Positions 55,813 through 64,000 of a stretch of 64,000 bases of DNA are shown in pieces. Below the pieces are notes generated by a model. That model ran no database searches and had not been told where the DNA came from. It worked only from the letters and a program-made list of their open reading frames with translations. The stretch spans positions 68,594-132,593 of IMG/VR virus record IMGVR_UViG_3300009506_000003. The stretch is one strand, 5' to 3'. A program made the translations under genes and the position numbers. How positions within the stretch are numbered: position 1 is the first letter of the stretch; the number at the start of each line of letters is the position of its first letter. The stretch is from a virus.

Positions 55813-56350
55813 GGAAACCTTGAAAGCAGCCCGGAAGGACGTCGAGGCCATCCGAGCGAAGTTCAAGTCCGACCGGGCAGAGATGGAGAATGCTCGGAAA
55901 GAAAGCCTGCGGGAATCCGTGGGAACTCGAGGCCGGGAGCTCAACAAGTTGAAGGCTGCCTCTGACACAGAGAAGGCGAAGCACAACGACGTCTACCAGC
56001 AGACGACGGCCAAGATCCAGCAGGAGTTCAAAGAGTCTTTGCAGATCTTGGAATCCGAACGGGATGACGCCATCGCCAAGGCGAAAGCCGAGAAGGAAGA
56101 AGCCTACAAAGCCATCAATGCCAAGCTCCAGAAGGACTCGGAGCCCATCAAGGAGAAGCACAAGGCCGACGTGGCTGAGACCGAAGAGAGCTTCACTCTC
56201 GAGATGGGCAAGATCGACGAAGCTGAGTCCGAGGCCATGCAAGTCCTCAATCGGGAAATCGAGGTCCTCGAGAAAAAGGTCGAGAAGCGCAAGTCGAAGA
56301 AGCCCAAACCCAAGAAGTCTGAGGCCGAGCCGGCGGGAGCTTCAGCATGA
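55757..56350 (+). CDS. Lys/Glu-rich coiled-coil protein
   Basis: GGGAG RBS. Confidence 0.65.
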   Translation: MSDKKQEAKKPEEKKLSPEETLKAARKDVEAIRAKFKSDRAEMENARKESLRESVGTRGRELNKLKAASDTEKAKHNDVYQQTTAKIQQEFKESLQILESERDDAIAKAKAEKEEAYKAINAKLQKDSEPIKEKHKADVAETEESFTLEMGKIDEAESEAMQVLNREIEVLEKKVEKRKSKKPKPKKSEAEPAGASA

Positions 56351-56601
56351 GCGACGACCGAAACGAATACGTGAGCATCGAGTTCGACAAGCTCGTCCGG
56401 CAGTCCAAGCCTGGCAGCCACAACCAGGGCGCTTTCCTCATCGAGGTCGATGGGGATGAGTTCTGGGTGGCCAAGAGTCAGGTGGACAACGTGGACGAGC
56501 TCATGGACGACCTCGAGCTCCCTGAGCATCGGCGTGAGGCTGATTCGATTGAGGTGCCAAAGTGGTTGGCTGTCGAAAATGGCTGGCTCGACGAAGACTG
56601 A
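56347..56601 (+). CDS. Hypothetical protein
   Basis: Coupled; FWVAKSQV...IEVPKWLA...G. Confidence 0.65.
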   Translation: MSDDRNEYVSIEFDKLVRQSKPGSHNQGAFLIEVDGDEFWVAKSQVDNVDELMDDLELPEHRREADSIEVPKWLAVENGWLDED

Positions 56602-57180
56602 GGCGCTTGTACGGGAGCTTGGAAGAATACCCTCCTACGCAGGTGGGACTCTCCAAGCTCCTGCATCACAACCTCCGGCTACTACATAGAGTCGAAGTTG
56701 TCACCGAAGCTCCGGGACTGGTCCGCTTCGGCCTCGTCTTCAGCTTTTGGGTGTTCTTCTTCACCTTCAACATCTACCCGTGGTGGGCGCGCAGACGTGC
56801 ACAGACGTTGCTCACGCAATACGTTGCTGTCGGGACTGTCGTCACCACTGTGATTGTCGAATGAGGAGGCGCTAGAGGGTCAAGCGGCTACCTGGACTTT
56901 TGGGAGCCGCACCCTCACTCCCCAAGCCCTCATGAGCTGGCGCATGTGCGCCCTCAGCACAGGGTCATGGGTCGTTTTGAGCCTCTCTTTCAGTTTCCTC
57001 AGGTGCTCCTTCGGAGAATCACCTGAGGAGCCGATCTCGGTCGCGTTCCAGACCATGACTTCCTCCTACACATCTTCTATGTATTTTACCACAACGTCAC
57101 ATTTTTGGTTGTTGTTTCACAAAGTTGTGGTAGGAAGATGTCTCACATTCATTTCACCCTCAGATAGGGAGACCAGAGCA

Positions 57181-57378
57181 ATGACTCAGCAAGTGACCAT
57201 CAACGAAGCCCAGAAGGCGGCTCTCAAGACCATCGTGGATGGTGGCCGTCAGTCTGCTGACACCTTCAACAAGCGGACCATCTTCGCCCTCGAGAACCGC
57301 GGTCTCGTCAAGACGACCGAGAACAAGAAGGGCATCTTCGTGGCCCCGACCGCGAAGGGGAAGAAGGCCCTCAACTAG
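57181..57378 (+). CDS. Small winged-helix-like protein
   Basis: GGGAG RBS; RTIFALENRGLV...TAKG; AT-rich upstream region with inverted repeat. Confidence 0.7.
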   Translation: MTQQVTINEAQKAALKTIVDGGRQSADTFNKRTIFALENRGLVKTTENKKGIFVAPTAKGKKALN

Positions 57379-57407
57379 CCAACCGCCACGGCTTTGGTCA
57401 TGGCGTA

Positions 57408-57449
57408 GAGCCCGGCCGCCTTCATTGGTGACCGGGCTCTTTTTTTAGC
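57408..57449 (+). terminator. Intrinsic terminator between convergent units
   Basis: AGAGCCCGGCCGCC ... GGTGACCGGGCTCT then TTTTTTAGC. Confidence 0.8.
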
Positions 57450-57452
57450 GAG

Positions 57453-57543
57453 TGGTGGGTAGGGAAGGATTCGAACCTCCAGTGGCCACTGTCGTGACTC
57501 CGGGTCTACAGCCCGGCGCGTTCAGCCATTTCGCTACCTACCC
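57453..57543 (-). tRNA. tRNA-Tyr(GTA)
   Basis: Cloverleaf, long variable arm, CT-GTA-GA loop, CCA. Confidence 0.93.
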
Positions 57544-57546
57544 ACG

Positions 57547-57620
57547 TGGAAGAGGAGCTGGGAATCGAACCCAGATGAACTGGTCCAAAGCCAGTTGCCC
57601 TGCCATTGAGCGACTCCTCC
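57547..57620 (-). tRNA. tRNA-Gln(TTG)
   Basis: ACTGG-CT-TTG-GA-CCAGT; CCA. Confidence 0.92.
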
Positions 57621-57623
57621 GTT

Positions 57624-57699
57624 TGGATGGGGAGGCGGGGGTCGAACCCACAACCTCCTGATTCAGAATCAGGCGCTCCACCAGTTGAGCTACTCCCCA
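57624..57699 (-). tRNA. tRNA-Gln(CTG)
   Basis: CCTGA-TT-CTG-AA-TCAGG; CCA. Confidence 0.92.
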
Positions 57700-57700
57700 A

Positions 57701-57774
57701 TGGAAGCCGAGACCGGATTCGAACCGGTGATGCCTGGGTTGCAGCCAGGTGCCTTTCCACTTGGCTACTCGGCT
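57701..57774 (-). tRNA. tRNA-Cys(GCA)
   Basis: CCTGG-CT-GCA-AC-CCAGG; U73; CCA. Confidence 0.93.
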
Positions 57775-57775
57775 T

Positions 57776-57849
57776 TGGGGTGACCGCGGAGAATCGAACT
57801 CCGACCATCGGGGCCACAACCCGACGCTCTACCATTGAGCTACGGCCAC
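57776..57849 (-). tRNA. tRNA-His(GTG)
   Basis: TCGGG-TT-GTG-GC-CCCGA; C73; CCA. Confidence 0.93.
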
Positions 57850-57956
57850 AAGGGGACCTCGAGCTGCCTCGGGAGCCCCTTCTGGTCGCAGACGTCAATG
57901 TCGTAGAGCTTGCGCTCATCGCAGTATCTCCAAGTTGTGGACAGAGAGATCCGCGC

Positions 57957-58007
57957 TCAGGCTTGAGCCGGATATTGATGACAGTGCTGGTAGAAGCGAC
58001 TGACCAT
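57957..58007 (-). CDS. Leader peptide MVSRFYQHCHQYPAQA of the His/Cys/Gln/Tyr tRNA cassette
   Basis: ATG 6 nt after -10 TACACT; codons TAC CAG CAC TGT CAT CAA TAT. Confidence 0.75.
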   Translation of the reverse strand: MVSRFYQHCHQYPAQA

Positions 58008-58013
58008 GAGACG

Positions 58014-58043
58014 AGTGTACGACAGGCAGGCAGGACCTGACAA
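58014..58043 (-). promoter_or_regulatory. sigma70-type promoter of the His/Cys/Gln/Tyr cassette
   Basis: TTGTCA-N18-TACACT. Confidence 0.7.
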
Positions 58044-58412
58044 CTAGATTTTCTCTATCGTGTCACCCTTGTCGCTGCAGAGGTACACCGGGAGCTGTGT
58101 GCGCCCGACCTTCCTCTCACCGTTCTGGGTGAACCAAATCAACCTGAAGATGGGGCAGTCCTGCTCATCATCGTGGACAACCACACACGGCCGCGCGGGA
58201 CCATCGAAGAGCATGTGCCTCGTGAGCCGGCCATCATTGCTGATGTCGCTCTCATCGACCTCGAAGTGGTCTCCGTCCCCGTATTCCACCTCGCTCACTT
58301 CACCAAAGACAATCCAGTGAGCTCCTGCGGGGATGGTTCTGTCATATTGGGGGTCGGGGCGCTCCGGGTTTGGAACGCGCCTGTACGCCTGCTTCTGGAA
58401 CTTCAGAATCAT
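58044..58412 (-). CDS. Hypothetical protein inside the tRNA cluster
   Basis: 122-aa ORF; purine-rich RBS region. Confidence 0.6.
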   Translation of the reverse strand: MILKFQKQAYRRVPNPERPDPQYDRTIPAGAHWIVFGEVSEVEYGDGDHFEVDESDISNDGRLTRHMLFDGPARPCVVVHDDEQDCPIFRLIWFTQNGERKVGRTQLPVYLCSDKGDTIEKI

Positions 58413-58483
58413 TTCCTACCTACCTTCCTGTCTGTCCTGCCTGCCTGTCCTCGTCGTAGCACAGGTCACGGACAGAAGGAAAG

Positions 58484-58575
58484 TGGCGGAAGGTGGAGGA
58501 ATCGAACCCCTACGCTTTTGACGCACCATGCTGGTTTTCAAGACCAGTGGCTGGACCATCCCGCCGGCACCTTCC
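58484..58575 (-). tRNA. tRNA-Ser(TGA), probably 8/4 fold
   Basis: CTGGT-CT-TGA-AA-ACCAG; acceptor GGAAGGTG/CACCTTCC; G73; long variable arm. Confidence 0.88.
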
Positions 58576-58577
58576 GT

Positions 58578-58652
58578 TGGTCGGGGTGGGCGGCTTCGAA
58601 CCGCCGACCTCTTGTCCCCCAGACAAGCGCGCTACCCCTGCGCTACACCCCG
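58578..58652 (-). tRNA. tRNA-Pro(GGG)
   Basis: CTTGT-CT-GGG-GG-ACAAG; CCA. Confidence 0.92.
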
Positions 58653-58880
58653 GACCTTGTCAAAGAGGTAGCCCAAACTGCGGCTCCCCTGCTCTTCCTC
58701 TGACATCGAGAAGCCGTAGAACGTGTCGAGGCCCGTGTGCTCCACACCGTCGTCATCGACGATGGACACTCCATTGCCGAGACCGGCCTTCTCGAAAGCC
58801 TTCTGAGCTGACTCCTTGTCTTTGAAGCGCAGCTCATCCGTGCAACATCCACAATCCAACTTCACGTACACCGTGATCAT
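58632..58880 (-). CDS. Hypothetical protein whose stop codon lies inside tRNA-Pro(GGG)
   Basis: AGGAG RBS; phage-like codon use. Confidence 0.55.
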   Translation of the reverse strand: MITVYVKLDCGCCTDELRFKDKESAQKAFEKAGLGNGVSIVDDDGVEHTGLDTFYGFSMSEEEQGSRSLGYLFDKVRGVAQG

Positions 58881-58899
58881 GACGATCTCCTGTTTCGAG

Positions 58900-58975
58900 T
58901 GGTCGGGCTGGCCAGGCTCGAACTGGCGACCTCCTGTCCCCGAGGCAGGCGCGCTACCATCTGCGCTACAGCCCG
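58900..58975 (-). tRNA. tRNA-Pro(CGG)
   Basis: CT-CGG-GG loop; CCA. Confidence 0.9.
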
Positions 58976-58976
58976 A

Positions 58977-59051
58977 TGGTCGGGGTGGTCAGGATCGAAC
59001 TGACGACATCCGGCTCCCAAAACCGGCGCGCTCCCGCTGCGCTACACCCCG
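58977..59051 (-). tRNA. tRNA-Pro(TGG)
   Basis: CCGGT-TT-TGG-GA-GCCGG; CCA. Confidence 0.92.
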
Positions 59052-59067
59052 ACAGTGCGAGAAAAGT

Positions 59068-59157
59068 TGGCGGAGCAGACAGGATTCGAACCTGCGGACG
59101 CCTCACGACGCCTACGGGTTAGCAACCCGCTGCCTTCATCCGCTCGGCCACTGCTCC
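59068..59157 (-). tRNA. tRNA-Ser(GCT)
   Basis: GCGGG-TT-GCT-AA-CCCGT; long variable arm; G73; CCA. Confidence 0.93.
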
Positions 59158-59165
59158 GCTGTGAT

Positions 59166-59279
59166 TCAGCGACTCAGTGGCGAACTGGGTGACGGGGATG
59201 GTGATGGGGAGGACGAGCTCGGGCACAGCACTGCGAGGTTGCAGTTGAGTCGTGCGCGAGTTTCGTTGAGCATCAACAT
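59166..59279 (-). CDS. Leader peptide MLMLNETRARLNCNLAVLCPSSSSPSPSPSPSSPLSR of the Ser/Pro tRNA cassette
   Basis: GAGGAGG RBS; 15 consecutive Ser/Pro codons; stop 8 nt before tRNA-Ser. Confidence 0.75.
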   Translation of the reverse strand: MLMLNETRARLNCNLAVLCPSSSSPSPSPSPSSPLSR

Positions 59280-59299
59280 GATGACGTCCTCCTCAGTCG

Positions 59300-59328
59300 A
59301 ATGTACGATAGCTGTGAGTGTTCGTCAA
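59300..59328 (-). promoter_or_regulatory. sigma70-type promoter of the Ser/Pro cassette
   Basis: TTGACG-N17-TACATT. Confidence 0.75.
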
Positions 59329-59334
59329 CAACTC

Positions 59335-59547
59335 ATGGAGTGGTCAGTCACAAGAATCGAGGGAGTGGTGCGCCACCTCGTCCCGTCCCTCACCAATGTA
59401 GAGGTCAGCTTCCCCTCTCCGGGAGTGGTGCGCGTGCTGATCACAGCCGAGAACGCATGGGGCGTGCAGAGCAGGGTCCAGTCAGTACTCGACCAAGCCC
59501 TGCCCGCCTCCATTCAGCGTGTTGAGGTGTTGGTTGTCAGAGGCTAG
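59335..59547 (+). CDS. Hypothetical protein
   Basis: Short ORF filling the gap; weak RBS. Confidence 0.4.
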   Translation: MEWSVTRIEGVVRHLVPSLTNVEVSFPSPGVVRVLITAENAWGVQSRVQSVLDQALPASIQRVEVLVVRG

Positions 59548-60005
59548 TCGTCAGATGCTTCTGCCCACGCAATGGTGACCGCCCAGTGAGACAAAACTGG
59601 GTCGAACGCTTTGAACGCGGAAGGGTTGTCGATGCCCATCGTCATCTTGCCGTAGCTGAATCCGTTCTCTCCCCAGTCGGCAGTGTATTTCCCACCACGG
59701 GTGTTGAGCTCGACGCTCCCGCTTTCCGGACCACTGTTGGTCACGGTAGTGAGGCCCCACCCGCCTTCCTCGTCCTTCACCATGTCGATGTAGTAGTAGT
59801 CCCCTGGGACGAACTCCTTGCCACCAGCGTCGAAGGACGGTCCACGGAAGTTGAGGGTCATGTCCCCAGAGGGGGTGAACTTCCAGAACTGGGAGTTCTC
59901 TTTGTTGTGCTTGCTCTGCACAACGGGGCCTAGCTCGACGACAAGCGTCTTGTCCCACTTCTTGGTAACGGAAAGGCAACGGAATTTGGCACGTACCTGG
60001 CTCAT
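59544..60005 (-). CDS. Hypothetical phage protein (VRAKFRC...EN..FWKFTPSG)
   Basis: GGAGG RBS; internal duplication pattern. Confidence 0.7.
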   Translation of the reverse strand: MSQVRAKFRCLSVTKKWDKTLVVELGPVVQSKHNKENSQFWKFTPSGDMTLNFRGPSFDAGGKEFVPGDYYYIDMVKDEEGGWGLTTVTNSGPESGSVELNTRGGKYTADWGENGFSYGKMTMGIDNPSAFKAFDPVLSHWAVTIAWAEASDD

Positions 60006-60090
60006 CTCTTCCTCCAAACGGTTGAATGTGAGCCGCGCTGTTGACCTGGATCGCGACGTGCCAGTTACCTCCACCGTAGCATGGTCAAGG

Positions 60091-60690
60091 TCAGAAGTCA
60101 GCTTCTTCGAGCAGCGTGTAGGTGAAGCCATCCCCAAACAAGGATGAGGACTTCTTGGCCAGCGAGTACAAAAACTGGTGCTGGAAGGGGTCAGCCACCA
60201 CTTGGCAGCCAGCACTCCACTTGTCCACAACCGTACTGGCCTGGCTAGACCCAGCGTGGTGGAGGTTGATGCCGAACATCCCTTCCTGGATGGAATCCGG
60301 GTCGAGGTCGAGGACCTCGTCCTTGTTGTTGTCCCGGTAGACTTTCAGAGGGCTCTTCTGCACCAGAGCTGGATACCCGCTGTGGAGCCCGAGCTTGAAA
60401 GCGCCCCGGTACTGTCCTGGGACCAGGATGGCGGTACCGTTCACGTTCATCGGGTGCTCCCGGTAGTAGACACCGGGGTCCGTGGTGGCGGGGAACATGA
60501 AGCAGTTCCATCTGTCATTGAAAAGGTACATCACGCCGATCACATCGTTGAAGGTGTTGGCGCGGTTGTCCAGGGTCCGAATGCCGAAGATGTTGAGGTC
60601 GTAGCCACCCTTCGACTGGTCACCGAAGACGAGGTAGTTCTTCGAGCGCATGACGGCTTTGATGAGCTTCGCATCGCTGAGTACAAGCAT
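60091..60690 (-). CDS. Putative peptidoglycan hydrolase/endolysin (YkuD-like H...WSAGCQV)
   Basis: LNIFGIR...FND...TTDPG...GINLH...WSAGCQV...FTYTL; AGGAGG RBS. Confidence 0.6.
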   Translation of the reverse strand: MLVLSDAKLIKAVMRSKNYLVFGDQSKGGYDLNIFGIRTLDNRANTFNDVIGVMYLFNDRWNCFMFPATTDPGVYYREHPMNVNGTAILVPGQYRGAFKLGLHSGYPALVQKSPLKVYRDNNKDEVLDLDPDSIQEGMFGINLHHAGSSQASTVVDKWSAGCQVVADPFQHQFLYSLAKKSSSLFGDGFTYTLLEEADF

Positions 60691-60722
60691 GTAGGCCTCC
60701 TATCCAGAAGAGCCTACCACGA

Positions 60723-60806
60723 TGGTGCGGCGGGAGGGAGTCGAACCCTCACCCTTTCGGCCCGGATTTTAAGTCCGGTGTGTCTACCTGATTCCACCAC
60801 CGCCGC
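60723..60806 (-). tRNA. tRNA-Leu(TAA)
   Basis: CCGGA-CT-TAA-AA-TCCGG; variable arm; A73; CCA. Confidence 0.93.
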
Positions 60807-60807
60807 G

Positions 60808-60892
60808 TGGTGCGCGGGGCGGGATTCGAACCCGCATGCCGAAGCACCGAGGTTTGAGCTCGGCGTGTCTACCTTGCTTCCACCACCCGCGC
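60808..60892 (-). tRNA. tRNA-Leu(CAA)
   Basis: CCGAG-CT-CAA-AC-CTCGG; CCA. Confidence 0.93.
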
Positions 60893-60966
60893 TCGAGCTG
60901 TGCGCCCTGGAACCCTGTCACAGCTCAATGGCGCCCTCCTATGTGCCTGACGCCACCCACTTCGAT

Positions 60967-61052
60967 TGGTGCCCGAGGAGAGATTCGAACTCTCACGCCG
61001 AAGCACGGGTTTCTGAGACCCGCGTGTCTACCAAAGATTCCACCACTCGGGC
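60967..61052 (-). tRNA. tRNA-Leu(CAG)
   Basis: CGGGT-CT-CAG-AA-ACCCG; CCA. Confidence 0.93.
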
Positions 61053-61053
61053 T

Positions 61054-61139
61054 TGGTCCGCGAGGGGAGACTCGAACTCCCACGCACAAGGCGCCGGTCC
61101 CTCAGACCGGTGCGTCTACCTGGATTCCGCCACTCGCGG
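61054..61139 (-). tRNA. tRNA-Leu(GAG)
   Basis: CCGGT-CT-GAG-GG-ACCGG; CCA. Confidence 0.93.
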
Positions 61140-61159
61140 ACGGGTTTGCTTGGGAGCTG

Positions 61160-61237
61160 CTAGCGCAACAGGGATAGCAGCCCGGTGCTAAGGTGCGGGC
61201 CGCGTAACAGGGACAGGACTCTGTGGTCGCGCTGCAT
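61160..61237 (-). CDS. Leader peptide MQRDHRVLSLLRGPHLSTGLLSLLR of the Leu tRNA cassette
   Basis: ATG 6 nt after -10 TAAGGT; 8 Leu codons (CTG x4, TTA, CTT, CTA, TTG). Confidence 0.72.
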   Translation of the reverse strand: MQRDHRVLSLLRGPHLSTGLLSLLR

Positions 61238-61243
61238 GGTCAC

Positions 61244-61273
61244 ACCTTACGCGCTCCGAAGCCTCTTCGTCAA
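61244..61273 (-). promoter_or_regulatory. sigma70-type promoter of the Leu cassette
   Basis: TTGACG-N18-TAAGGT. Confidence 0.7.
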
Positions 61274-61351
61274 GTCCTCAAAAAACCATAGCCGTTTGCG
61301 TAATAAGGTCCCTGAAGCTAACTCTGTTCACTTTTCACTGGAGGATCTCAA

Positions 61352-62419
61352 ATGCAGGTAGCAGCATCCGCCGCAGGCCCTGAAAAGACGGGTCACGGCA
61401 AACGTCCTCGCATCTCTGTCAAAGAGAAGCGGAAGCAAATGGCCATCGAGCTCTTCGCCAAAGCGGTGGAAGAGGCCGAGAAGCCGGCTCAGTCAGACTT
61501 CATCGTCCCCAAAGTCGACTTTGCAATGATTGGCCCCAAAGAAGCCAAGGAGCTTCTCCAAAAGAGCCAGGGCAACAGAAAGATCCGTGAGCTTCACGTT
61601 CGCTGGCTGGAAAAAGTCATGCGTGACGGGAAATGGGTGTTCGGACCTCCCATCATCATCGATCTCAACGGAGTCCTCATTGGTGGGCACCACAGGCTCC
61701 ACGCCGTCATAAGGTCAGGGCTCTACGTTCCCATGACCGTCATGAAGGGGGCTGACCCGCAGCTCAACGAGTGGACCAACCAACACAAGGAAGCCAAACT
61801 GGGTGACGAGATTCATCGCTACGGGATGAACAACGCCAACGCGCGTGGGGCCATAGTGAGGTTGGCCGCCGAACTCACCGCCAAGAGGAGAATCCCCGTC
61901 AACTCCTTTAGCGACTATGCTGAGTGGGCTCGGGTCTTCAAGGGAGTCGACTGGGTGGTAGAGAATCTGGTGGGCAAAGACCCCTGGAGGAAATCATCCA
62001 TCACGGGAGCTTTCGCTTACGCCTACAACACTGACCCAGATGCCGTGAAGCTCTTCTGCACGAAGATGGTCACTGGGGAAGGCCTTTCAAAAACAGACCC
62101 GGTGCTGGCGTTCCGAAATTGGTTTCTTTGGTACACTGCTACCGACAAGGACAAGAAGGATGTCCGCAAGCACGCCATTGCAGGCGGTGGGGATGAGCGG
62201 AAGCGAGTCTACACGTTCAAGGTGCTGCACTGTATCCGTGCGGCTATCGAGAAGAAGAAGCCAAGAACCTTGAAGTCCTTGAGGATGGAAGTTTCTCTCG
62301 ACGATCTTGAGTACTTCAGGCAAGCCAACGAGACCAGGGCGGCCAAAAAGATGGTCAACTACTGGTCCGAGCCGAGGATGTCTTCCGAGGAATTTCTCTC
62401 GTACCTCAAAGAGGGGTAG
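61352..62419 (+). CDS. ParB-like N-terminal domain protein
   Basis: I.P..AKELL...NRKI...M..GKW...III...G.LIGGHHRLHAV; GGAGG RBS; ATAAG promoter at 61303. Confidence 0.7.
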   Translation: MQVAASAAGPEKTGHGKRPRISVKEKRKQMAIELFAKAVEEAEKPAQSDFIVPKVDFAMIGPKEAKELLQKSQGNRKIRELHVRWLEKVMRDGKWVFGPPIIIDLNGVLIGGHHRLHAVIRSGLYVPMTVMKGADPQLNEWTNQHKEAKLGDEIHRYGMNNANARGAIVRLAAELTAKRRIPVNSFSDYAEWARVFKGVDWVVENLVGKDPWRKSSITGAFAYAYNTDPDAVKLFCTKMVTGEGLSKTDPVLAFRNWFLWYTATDKDKKDVRKHAIAGGGDERKRVYTFKVLHCIRAAIEKKKPRTLKSLRMEVSLDDLEYFRQANETRAAKKMVNYWSEPRMSSEEFLSYLKEG

Positions 62420-62431
62420 AGGAGGTGCCCC

Positions 62432-63565
62432 ATGATAATGAGATTGAACCGAAATAAGAGCCTTCCGGACCACATCAGCGGGAGTGAACTCTTCACCATG
62501 ATCGAGCCCTACAAGGTCAAGGGGCCCGGAAGCAAGAGGTTCGGGCGCAAGAAGTTCACAAGGGACATCCTCAACGAGTACACCGATGAGGTCAACTTCA
62601 CCCCAAAAGCAATCGTCTACGACAAAGGAGACGGAGGAACCAAAGAGACAAGAGGACTCAACGAGAAAGAGGTCAGAAAGATTCTGCATTTTCTGCATAG
62701 GGATGGCTACATTGGCTCAGCAACCATCACTCTCCATAAGAGGTTCGGCCTTTCCAAGGATGAGAACACTGAGGTGGTTGGAGTCATAGGTCGAAGCTCT
62801 AGCAGCGCACCTCTTGAGGAAGCAGTGTCTCCTTCTACTCACTCATCTCCGCCTGCAGGGAAAAGAGAGACGTGGGGCGAAGCCAACTCTCTCCTCGTTC
62901 GAGCGGTAAAGAAGAACGTACCCCTTTCGAACCTGATCAGCTCACTCATCTCTGCAGGTCTCAGACAAGAGCCGTTACCGGCGGAAACTGTTCTGAGGCA
63001 AATGGAGCGCCTACGTGATTCTGGAGAGATCAACAAAGAGAGCCTCATCCAGTACAAGCGCAACAACGGAATAGCCGCCAGAGGAGGATACAAAAGGCAA
63101 AGAGCAGAGCCAGAGAGGGTGACCGAAGCCAAGTCTTCTTTGAAATCCCCATGGGGGAAGCATCAAAGCACCCTGCTGTCCAAGCTCATCAATGAGGTAG
63201 ACCCTCTACCTGGTGAGACAGGAGCTACCTATTTTGAAAGAGTGGCCGGGCAATTCAACGAGTCAGGATTGCGTGTGGTCACGGGCCCATCGTGCAGGAA
63301 GCAAGCTCCAAAACTCATTGGCAAGGGAATCACGAGTGAGCGATACTCTCTTGTCAATCGAAGTAGAGAGGAGAAGCTCCCCGCTGGGAGCCCCACTCCT
63401 ATCGAGAACGAGATCCAACGAAGAAAGGAAGAATCGTTGGGCATCAATCTCGAATCGGCTCTCACGGAAGAGGCAAAAGAAAAAGCCATTGAGATGTACC
63501 TCACTCCAGAAAGAAGGAGGGAGGCATACCGAGGCTATTTCAAGTCTTTGGGAGTCAACATATGA
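62432..63565 (+). CDS. Hypothetical protein
   Basis: AGGAGG RBS; 377 aa; lower GC than its surroundings. Confidence 0.6.
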   Translation: MIMRLNRNKSLPDHISGSELFTMIEPYKVKGPGSKRFGRKKFTRDILNEYTDEVNFTPKAIVYDKGDGGTKETRGLNEKEVRKILHFLHRDGYIGSATITLHKRFGLSKDENTEVVGVIGRSSSSAPLEEAVSPSTHSSPPAGKRETWGEANSLLVRAVKKNVPLSNLISSLISAGLRQEPLPAETVLRQMERLRDSGEINKESLIQYKRNNGIAARGGYKRQRAEPERVTEAKSSLKSPWGKHQSTLLSKLINEVDPLPGETGATYFERVAGQFNESGLRVVTGPSCRKQAPKLIGKGITSERYSLVNRSREEKLPAGSPTPIENEIQRRKEESLGINLESALTEEAKEKAIEMYLTPERRREAYRGYFKSLGVNI

Positions 63566-63571
63566 AAAGGA

Positions 63572-63603
63572 GAGGGGTGCCGTCTGAGCCCCTCTTTTTT
63601 AGC
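63572..63603 (+). terminator. Intrinsic terminator
   Basis: GAGGGG...CCCCTC then TTTTTTAGC. Confidence 0.65.
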
Positions 63604-63606
63604 GTG

Positions 63607-63682
63607 TGGCGGGAGTGGAGGGAGTCGAACCCTCAGCCATCGGGTTAACGGCCCGCTGCTCTACCATCTGAGCTTCACTCCC
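63607..63682 (-). tRNA. tRNA-Asn(GTT)
   Basis: CGGG-CC-GTT-AA-CCCG; G73; CCA. Confidence 0.9.
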
Positions 63683-63777
63683 GAGTGGGGTGGCGTCAGA
63701 GGTGCATTCCCCGTGACGCCGGCCTACCGTGACGAGACAAGATGCCTCTGCTCGCTCGTGAGGGCACATCCCCATAA

Positions 63778-63851
63778 TGGTGGACCAGGTTGGTGTCGAC
63801 CCAACGTCTCGAGCTCTTCAGACTCGTGCTAAACCCCTCAGCTACTGGTCC
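63778..63851 (-). tRNA. tRNA-Phe(GAA)
   Basis: CGAGT-CT-GAA-GA-GCTCG; atypical T-loop GTCGACA; CCA. Confidence 0.85.
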
Positions 63852-63858
63852 AAGTTTT

Positions 63859-63932
63859 TGGTGGAAGTGACAGGAATCGAACCTGCATCTCTCGGGTGCA
63901 AACCGAGGGCTCTCCCGTTGAGCTACACCCCC
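63859..63932 (-). tRNA. tRNA-Ala(TGC)
   Basis: CTCGG-TT-TGC-AC-CCGAG; G3-U70; CCA. Confidence 0.92.
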
Positions 63933-63940
63933 ACGCGATC

Positions 63941-64000
63941 TGGAGCCGGTGACAGGAGTCGAACCTGCAACCCTCTGCTTACAAGGCAGACGCTCTTCCG
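63941..64000 (-). tRNA. tRNA-Thr(TGT), 5' end outside window
   Basis: TCTGC-CT-TGT-AA-GCAGA; T-arm; CCA. Confidence 0.88.

Follow-up and report, generated by a model that had tools for sequence, protein, structure and literature searches.

Exploring a 64,000-nucleotide stretch of viral DNA (positions 68,594 to 132,593 of IMG/VR virus record IMGVR_UViG_3300009506_000003; hereafter the window), we found that a short frame rich in leucine (Leu) codons precedes an array of four tRNA-Leu genes, and that a frame enriched in cognate codons heads each of the three tRNA operons for which the window retains the upstream DNA. From sequence comparison we conclude that the Leu frame is real and belongs to a family of leader mini-genes, each specific to its operon. 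What we observe directly is the match in composition between leaders and tRNAs, the rarity of such frames, their conservation, including that of the promoter-to-ATG spacing, and the joint travel of leader and tRNAs. The reading we favour, at a probability of roughly 0.6, is that the leader frames are translated, sense the supply of aminoacyl-tRNA and tune each tRNA operon in cis. A preliminary description of this DNA had proposed a leaderless Leu-codon leader belonging to the tRNA-Leu genes; so far as sequences can tell, the comparison supports this proposal, and the matched leaders found elsewhere strengthen it.

The record, of which the window forms the final 64 kb, measures 132,593 bp, has an estimated completeness of 69% and a G+C content of 58%, and codes for a family-A DNA polymerase, helicases, a ligase, tail proteins, a transfer-messenger RNA (tmRNA) and at least 18 tRNA genes. 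Its tRNA operons all lie on the minus strand within the final 8 kb, and the record terminus falls inside a tRNA, so that the head of the last tRNA array is cut off. tRNA genes were called with ARAGORN, to which Rfam covariance models added tRNA-Leu(CAG), promoter-like sites were searched by a consensus scan, and the DNA 5' of every tRNA cluster in the window was translated in search for leader frames. The features of the Leu operon are as follows (window coordinates here and below).

61244..61273, minus strand, promoter-like site (TTGACG 61273-61268, 18 nt, TAAGGT 61249-61244)
61160..61237, minus strand, Leu leader frame, 25 sense codons and TAG (61162-61160)
61154..61183, minus strand, 9-pair hairpin with one G-U (arms 61183-61175 and 61162-61154), covering the last Leu codons and the stop
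61140..61159, minus strand, C/A-rich spacer of 20 nt from the stop codon to the 5' end of tRNA-Leu(GAG)
60723..61139, minus strand, tRNA-Leu array of four genes (ARAGORN and Rfam)
61139-61054, minus strand, tRNA-Leu(GAG) (ARAGORN)
61052-60970, minus strand, tRNA-Leu(CAG) (Rfam only, 52.2 bits)
60892-60808, minus strand, tRNA-Leu(CAA) (ARAGORN)
60806-60723, minus strand, tRNA-Leu(TAA) (ARAGORN)

The layout TTGACG-N18-TAAGGT-N6-ATG given in the preliminary description is read directly on the minus strand, with the ATG (61237-61235) beginning 6 nt past the TAAGGT hexamer; a transcript from this site would start at or beside the start codon, i.e. it would be leaderless. The TAAGGT hexamer agrees with TATAAT at only 3 of 6 positions, which explains why the consensus scan did not list this promoter-like site while listing those of the other two operons. 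As had been noted, the frame carries eight Leu codons of five types (CTG four times, TTA, CTT, CTA and TTG), including the tandems CTG-TTA, CTG-CTA and CTG-TTG, and it ends with Leu-Leu-Arg-stop. Codon usage of the phage, taken from 47 long frames, revealed that TTA (0.7%) and CTA (3.1%) are its rarest Leu codons, both of which are present in the leader, and that CTC is its commonest (36%) and is missing from this leader. The frame is the sole case of at least 32% Leu among 425 ATG frames of 20-40 amino acids (aa) in the record. The CTA codon was known to lack a matching tRNA-Leu(TAG) in the cassette; we found none anywhere in the 132.6-kb record either. A degenerate pseudo-tRNA-Leu(TAG) in place of the leader was rejected, there being no tRNA-model match at 61140-61273 (E up to 1).

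The hairpin at the end of the frame is present with the nine pairs first reported, no U tract follows it, and the minimum-energy fold of the leader favours other pairings. As a conserved feature it did not hold up, having no counterpart in the alignment with the complete relative G010 (see below) and not being among the consensus pairs of the four relatives with a long spacer. The four tRNA-Leu genes downstream were all recovered. A 77-nt spacer without a tRNA-model match (60893-60969, minus strand) parts tRNA-Leu(CAG) from tRNA-Leu(CAA) and is absent in G010, and three related loci (L107, L108 and L110) instead carry an insert of ~480-510 nt between tRNA-Leu(CAA) and tRNA-Leu(TAA).

The other two operons carry tRNA genes for serine and proline (Ser/Pro) and for histidine, cysteine, glutamine and tyrosine (His/Cys/Gln/Tyr, here called His-type).

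59300..59328, minus strand, Ser/Pro promoter-like site (TTGACG, 17 nt, TACATT; consensus scan, 9 of 12 matches)
59166..59294, minus strand, Ser/Pro leader, ribosome-binding site 59294-59288 and 37-codon frame 59279-59166
58484..59157, minus strand, Ser/Pro tRNA cluster: Ser(GCT), Pro(TGG), Pro(CGG), an 82-aa frame, Pro(GGG), Ser(TGA) (ARAGORN)
58014..58043, minus strand, His promoter-like site (TTGTCA, 18 nt, TACACT; consensus scan, 9 of 12 matches)
57957..58007, minus strand, His/Cys/Gln/Tyr leader frame, 16 codons
57956-57850, minus strand, structured spacer of 107 nt between the His leader and tRNA-His (predicted folds)
57849-57453, minus strand, tRNA-His, Cys, Gln(CTG), Gln(TTG), Tyr (ARAGORN)

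The final part of the Ser/Pro leader is a run of 15 codons for Ser or Pro only, and its stop lies 8 nt from tRNA-Ser(GCT). Six-frame translation of the whole record showed that this run is the only one of its kind reaching 12 codons and is the longest. Enrichment was also measured by a 12-codon cognate scan, a frame-blind test applied to the DNA before tRNA clusters, which gave p 0.0008 for this leader. For all three Ser/Pro leaders examined (window and two relatives), folding predicts that the ribosome-binding site pairs with UCCUCC within the run. The 82-aa frame inside the cluster (58632-58880, minus strand) has a ribosome-binding site, and its last ~20 nt overlap tRNA-Pro(GGG); in G010 four tRNAs of the cluster are contiguous, without the 82-aa gene and without Pro(GGG).

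The His leader begins with an ATG 6 nt past its -10 and holds seven successive codons solely for Tyr, Gln, His and Cys, using both Tyr, both Gln and both His codons as well as TGT. By the same six-frame count it is the sole run of its kind of at least seven codons, and the longest, and the 12-codon scan gave p 0.0053. A G+C-rich hairpin before tRNA-His is followed by just two U. The spacer also contains a second ATG frame (57850-57930, minus strand), Ser/Thr-rich, with GGAG 8 nt upstream, that runs into tRNA-His.

Searching with the DNA polymerase returned five IMG/VR records at 59-66% identity, among them the complete relative G010 (202,100 bp; polymerase 59% identical), which carries 35 tRNA genes and a tmRNA. 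Its Leu (GAG, CAG, CAA, TAA), Ser/Pro and His/Cys/Gln/Gln/Tyr arrays each have a matching leader in front. The tRNA-Leu arrays of the window and G010 are 77% identical, and the Leu frame of G010, a homologue of 25 codons, has seven Leu codons of the same five types. The Ser/Pro leaders of both genomes share an identical 28-nt core, and in G010 too the stop lies 8 nt from the tRNA. The G010 His-type leader is not alignable with that of the window; its run of six Gln/His/Tyr/Cys codons still abuts the stop. G010 further carries a 37-codon leader before tRNA-Asp and an 18-tRNA array, in which 34 of 37 residues are among the 12 amino acids of the array and all 12 are represented, the only such window among 138,130; this leader reveals what the cut-off end of the window hides. 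Finally, two tRNA-Glu genes of G010 are preceded, at a distance of 7 nt, by a GTG frame of 13 codons in which GAA and GAG each occur once.

Related Leu arrays were ascertained blind to the leader, by scanning metagenome contigs for the tRNA-Leu(GAG)/tRNA-Leu(CAG) junction. The scan returned five loci, one of which (L109) is also in IMG/VR and one of which (L107) ends before the leader, so that six Leu arrays with upstream DNA are at hand (the window, G010, L106, L108, L109 and L110). Conservation of the Leu enrichment, on which the preliminary description had made its proposal depend, was found in all six: each has an ATG frame that is 24-25 codons long and includes 6-9 Leu codons of at least five types, TTA and CTA always among them, and the Leu-Leu-Arg-stop end. 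The -10-like hexamer stands 6 nt before the ATG in four of them (7 and 9 nt in the others) and in all three His-type leaders, the six-sequence Leu alignment shows no variation in the ATG or in the TA of the -10, and no ribosome-binding site was found in any of the six Leu and three His-type leaders. The Ser/Pro leaders have such a site in three of three cases, with 8, 8 and 9 nt from stop to tRNA (9 in L110). L110 also bears a His-type leader, its cognate run abutting the stop, so that all three leaders of the window recur in two relatives, G010 and L110. Across these three genomes the cognate run of the His-type leader keeps its composition and keeps neither its order nor its sequence, as codon sensing predicts and as a functional peptide would not. 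Between the Leu stop and the tRNA, the window and L110 have a spacer of 20 nt; in the other four relatives it measures 74-84 nt and holds two covarying hairpins that keep their pairs through two-sided changes.

The surroundings of these units are not conserved in G010, where the Leu, Ser/Pro and His units occupy the plus strand and the longest flanking open frames the minus strand, and two such frames that were compared have no homology to the neighbour genes of the window. Given that leader and tRNAs persist amid unrelated flanking frames, we assign the leader to the tRNAs; as judged by these sequences, the two travel as one unit.

Specificity of the 12-codon scan was controlled with 29 tRNA clusters from eight loci of other phages, including distant polymerase relatives with 8-17 tRNAs. 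None of the 29 reached p<0.05 (lowest 0.056), while the two further Ser/Pro leaders gave 0.0014 and 0.0051 and a second His-type leader 0.027. Wider searches returned little. The polymerase relatives at 31-38% identity (G013, G016 and G019) had no cognate leaders, and neither did the few tRNA clusters of relatives of the neighbour genes. A blastn search of INPHARED with 60000-62500 gave generic tRNA-Leu similarity only, the Leu junction pattern had no match in 185,579 species genomes, and a tRNA-Cys pattern returned G010 alone. Contigs from three DNA sequencing runs did not reach 61136-61400 outside the run from which the record probably stems, and they yielded no usable variants in the leaders. 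A degenerate Ser/Pro-leader pattern run against viral contigs matched, besides G010, one locus (L104) that proved false, having no tRNA and a match that is out of frame.

Several observations weigh against the sensing reading. Counted without regard to start codons, 0.9% of all stop-free 25-codon windows hold at least eight Leu, 3.2% of 220-nt segments contain a window with at least five Leu codon types, and the frame-blind scan gave p ~0.2 for the Leu frame of the window and 0.07-0.21 across the Leu leaders. Taken alone, the Leu frame is thus only modestly unusual, and its weight comes from the parallel leaders and from conservation. The G010 His-type leader scored p 0.30, because the clustering script had omitted Tyr from its amino-acid set, and the G010 Glu leader, with 2 Glu codons in 13, is weak alone. 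G008, with 65% polymerase identity and three tRNAs, is without such a leader. Pairwise ratios of nonsynonymous to synonymous change (pN/pS) in the Leu frame range from 0.2 to 1.8, and the three codon positions have similar numbers of variable sites (13, 13 and 15). Frame and codon content are conserved here rather than the peptide, which suits a sensor, but such substitution patterns are no proof of translation. Moreover, the leaders include CTA and tRNA-Leu(TAG) is absent from the complete G010 also, and TCC in the leaders is presumably unread by phage tRNAs; more phage tRNA could therefore not relieve every stall, and the match between leader and tRNAs holds at the level of amino acids.

The structure of the leaders raises a further difficulty. 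Neither a terminator scan nor folding found a terminator/antiterminator pair, or any hairpin with a U tract, in the three leaders of the window; the gaps from stop to tRNA are 20 nt (Leu) and 8 nt (Ser/Pro), that of the His leader being 107 nt; and the two covarying hairpins of the four relatives lack a U run, save for 4 U in L108. Terminator-like sites are no commoner than in shuffled sequence in the window region (5 found vs 7.0 expected) and much rarer in that of G010 (6 found vs 15.8 expected). No match to the Rfam leader families (Leu, His, Thr, Trp) or to T-box was detected in window 56000-64000 (E up to 1) or in L102, L106 and L108-L110 (E up to 0.1). With the terminator lacking, the output step would be of a kind not yet understood. 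The C/G ratio is 1.58 in the Leu and 2.00 in the Ser/Pro leader, against a background median of 1.00 and a 95th percentile of 1.57, and such C-rich leaders are compatible with a Rho loading site; the C-richness of the His leader, however, is modest (1.20). Terminator-like hairpins do close the Ala-Phe-Asn array (63560-63600) and the His-to-Tyr array (57400-57450), the latter being the terminator of a convergent plus-strand gene read on the other strand.

Weighing these points, we infer that the leaders are translated, that they sense and that they respond in a particular direction, most likely with more tRNA when decoding is slow. In the Leu and His-type operons a sigma-70-type promoter would start transcription on the start codon or a few bases ahead of it, whereas the Ser/Pro leader would rely on its ribosome-binding site instead. 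A ribosome would translate the leader as RNA polymerase enters the tRNA genes, and its speed over the cognate codons, including the rarest of the phage, would report the supply of the matching aminoacyl-tRNAs. Stalled there, it would favour continued transcription or maturation of the tRNA array and hence more of the scarce tRNA, in a shortage that could come from decay or cutting of host tRNAs in infection. Our first candidate for the output, though at less than even odds, is factor-dependent, Rho-type termination, in which a ribosome halted over the C-rich 3' portion of the leader would keep the factor off. A broader proposal, to which we give somewhat less than even odds, is that the whole tRNA complement of the phage is run as self-contained modules, each made of a promoter, a leader that gauges exactly the amino acids of its array, and the tRNA array. 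The output of such modules would need no intrinsic terminator, and individual tRNAs could be topped up on demand, e.g. when those of the host decay or are cut by anti-phage nucleases.

Of the alternatives, the one that survives best, although we hold it to be unlikely, takes the leaders for sensors of opposite sign: a stalled ribosome would uncouple from RNA polymerase and cause an early stop, an amino-acid-specific shutdown akin to the stringent response. It is kept alive by the unread codons and the amino-acid-level match noted above: since the match concerns the amino acid and not merely the anticodons of the phage, with CTA and TCC probably unreadable by phage tRNAs, a gauge of charging fits better than a gauge of phage tRNA supply, and the weak hairpins ahead of the tRNA in four relatives would also suit it. 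On the other hand, in every characterised leader-peptide attenuator known to us stalling raises expression, a phage would gain little by sparing tRNA synthesis, and no terminator stands in the leaders of the window.

Slightly less likely still is that the leaders are translated and sense nothing, with ribosome loading protecting the 5' end or shielding the transcript from termination, or with the peptides themselves acting. The conserved leaderless geometry and ribosome-binding site would be explained in this way, as would the conservation, in most Leu leaders, of the final 6-7 residues of the peptide and of a Gly-Pro-His-Leu stretch. It leaves unexplained, however, why amino acids match the operon across five operon types and why the His-type run is reshuffled between genomes, and a pN/pS near 1 in several pairs speaks against a functional peptide.

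We consider it very improbable that the leaders are untranslated RNA elements whose codon-like triplets pair with the nascent tRNA, either as in a T-box or as a guide to folding. A frame of cognate codons necessarily contains triplets complementary to the downstream anticodons, and two longer complementarities were found: in the G010 Glu leader, 8 nt that form the perfect complement of tRNA positions 1-8, and in the Ser/Pro leader, 7 nt that pair with tRNA-Ser positions 5-11 and show a two-sided change between the window and G010. Pairing of the leader with the 5' strand of the first tRNA was nevertheless rejected as a general feature, as 11 of 14 cases did no better than shuffles and the best three pairings (19, 28 and 70 of 500 shuffles) fall short of significance once all 14 tests are counted. 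In the searches given above the leaders matched neither T-box nor another Rfam family, and in every case the triplets follow one another in a single reading frame that runs from a start codon, placed where the transcript is predicted to begin, to a stop. It is hardly credible that chance alone opened the Leu frame within a promoter region and 5' leader of a tRNA precursor: it is not rare by itself in the frame-blind counts (0.9% of windows, p ~0.2) and other frames of this G+C-rich DNA are open as well, but it recurs with its rare codons in 6/6 arrays found via their tRNAs, the other operons are preceded by matched runs, each the most extreme of its kind in the record, while no control cluster reaches p<0.05, and recent copying among leaders is disfavoured by the 59% polymerase and 77% array identity.

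Downstream of the Leu array lies one further gene on the same strand.

60091..60690, minus strand, 199-aa gene, 32 nt past the last tRNA-Leu, with its own ribosome-binding site and no terminator between

The preliminary description had called it a putative endolysin gene that may be co-regulated. Its PHROG matches are to phrog_3000 (unknown function, E 2.8e-41) and to part of an endolysin PHROG (6e-18), with no match in Pfam or PDB, and it is probably co-transcribed with the tRNA-Leu array in this phage. The link stops there, as the gene is not in the conserved unit: its 26 distant relatives have no tRNA-Leu nearby, the only tRNA call among them being an unassigned tRNA-like one in L026, and the single flanking frame of G010 set against the gene shows no homology. 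On the other side of the leader, a divergent 355-aa neighbour (61352-62419, plus strand) has a weak ParB-like match (phrog_5931; phrog_620 E 6e-4) and no close relative among viral or metagenome contigs.

A few other features of these phages were recorded. A 249-aa protein encoded outside the window (63099-63848 of the record, minus strand; L047 3099-3848) matches a sigma factor PHROG (E 3.5e-10), and such a phage sigma factor could read the weak -10-like hexamers of the leader promoters. The tmRNA of the phage (window 32634-32995, plus strand) encodes a 14-residue tag according to ARAGORN, and its G010 homologue (L102 434-791, minus strand) a similar tag of 15 residues; a phage-borne ribosome-rescue RNA suits, oddly well, leaders expected to stall ribosomes. 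With introns allowed, ARAGORN predicts in G010 a tRNA-Ser(AGA) whose anticodon loop carries a 64-nt insert (L102 9083-9218, minus strand; Rfam 49.6 bits over 134 nt), and a predicted tRNA-like gene with an irregular anticodon loop lies at L102 8765-8836, minus strand.

Why phages carry tRNAs is debated, the proposals being codon matching, replacement of decaying host tRNAs and escape from tRNA-cutting defences, and to our knowledge little is known of how phage tRNA genes are regulated. If the favoured reading is true, the leaders provide direct feedback from decoding capacity to tRNA supply, which makes the purpose of phage tRNAs testable, and leader-peptide sensing extends from amino-acid and synthetase genes to tRNA genes, a new class of target possibly with a new output mechanism. 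The leaders would also be compact natural sensors for individual aminoacyl-tRNAs. A full-text literature search, in its listings and the opening lines of the abstracts, gave no paper on a leader frame controlling tRNA genes.

Leader-peptide attenuators of enterobacteria control the leu, his, trp and pheA operons, the thr and ilv operons with multivalent leaders, and pheST. They resemble the present leaders in having a short upstream frame enriched in cognate codons, with rare ones near its end, and in serving mixed operons by leaders for several amino acids. They differ in that here tRNA genes would be controlled rather than biosynthetic or synthetase genes, the carrier is a phage, the Leu and His-type leaders are predicted to be leaderless, and terminator/antiterminator, U tract and Rfam leader match are all lacking. 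Factor-dependent leader control is represented by tnaC-tnaA and by the proline-codon leaders of Salmonella mgt. There the leader frame ends by a C-rich unstructured stretch, where a held ribosome would deny the termination factor access, and no intrinsic terminator is needed. Our leaders may be alike in this, but only those for Ser/Pro and Leu are clearly C-rich, the role of Rho is putative, and the targets would be tRNAs. T-box riboswitches likewise make expression depend on a given tRNA and its state, a codon in the leader recognising the anticodon. They differ from translated leaders as proposed here in being untranslated, in using one specifier codon and a conserved T-box motif and in controlling synthetase or amino-acid genes, and none was matched in our leaders.

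The closest described system appears to be that of the leaderless polycysteine short frames of mycobacteria, which are reported to be cysteine-responsive attenuators (bioRxiv 10.1101/834739). Several independent leaders there answer to one signal, an arrangement termed a 'ribulon' (10.1101/834739). The mycobacterial transcript begins at the start codon of an unannotated short frame with a tract of cognate codons, as is predicted for our Leu and His-type leaders; the two systems differ in that here the next gene is a tRNA and each leader would sense a different set of amino acids. The present case stands out by its full set of matched leaders, its leaderless geometry and its lack of a terminator.

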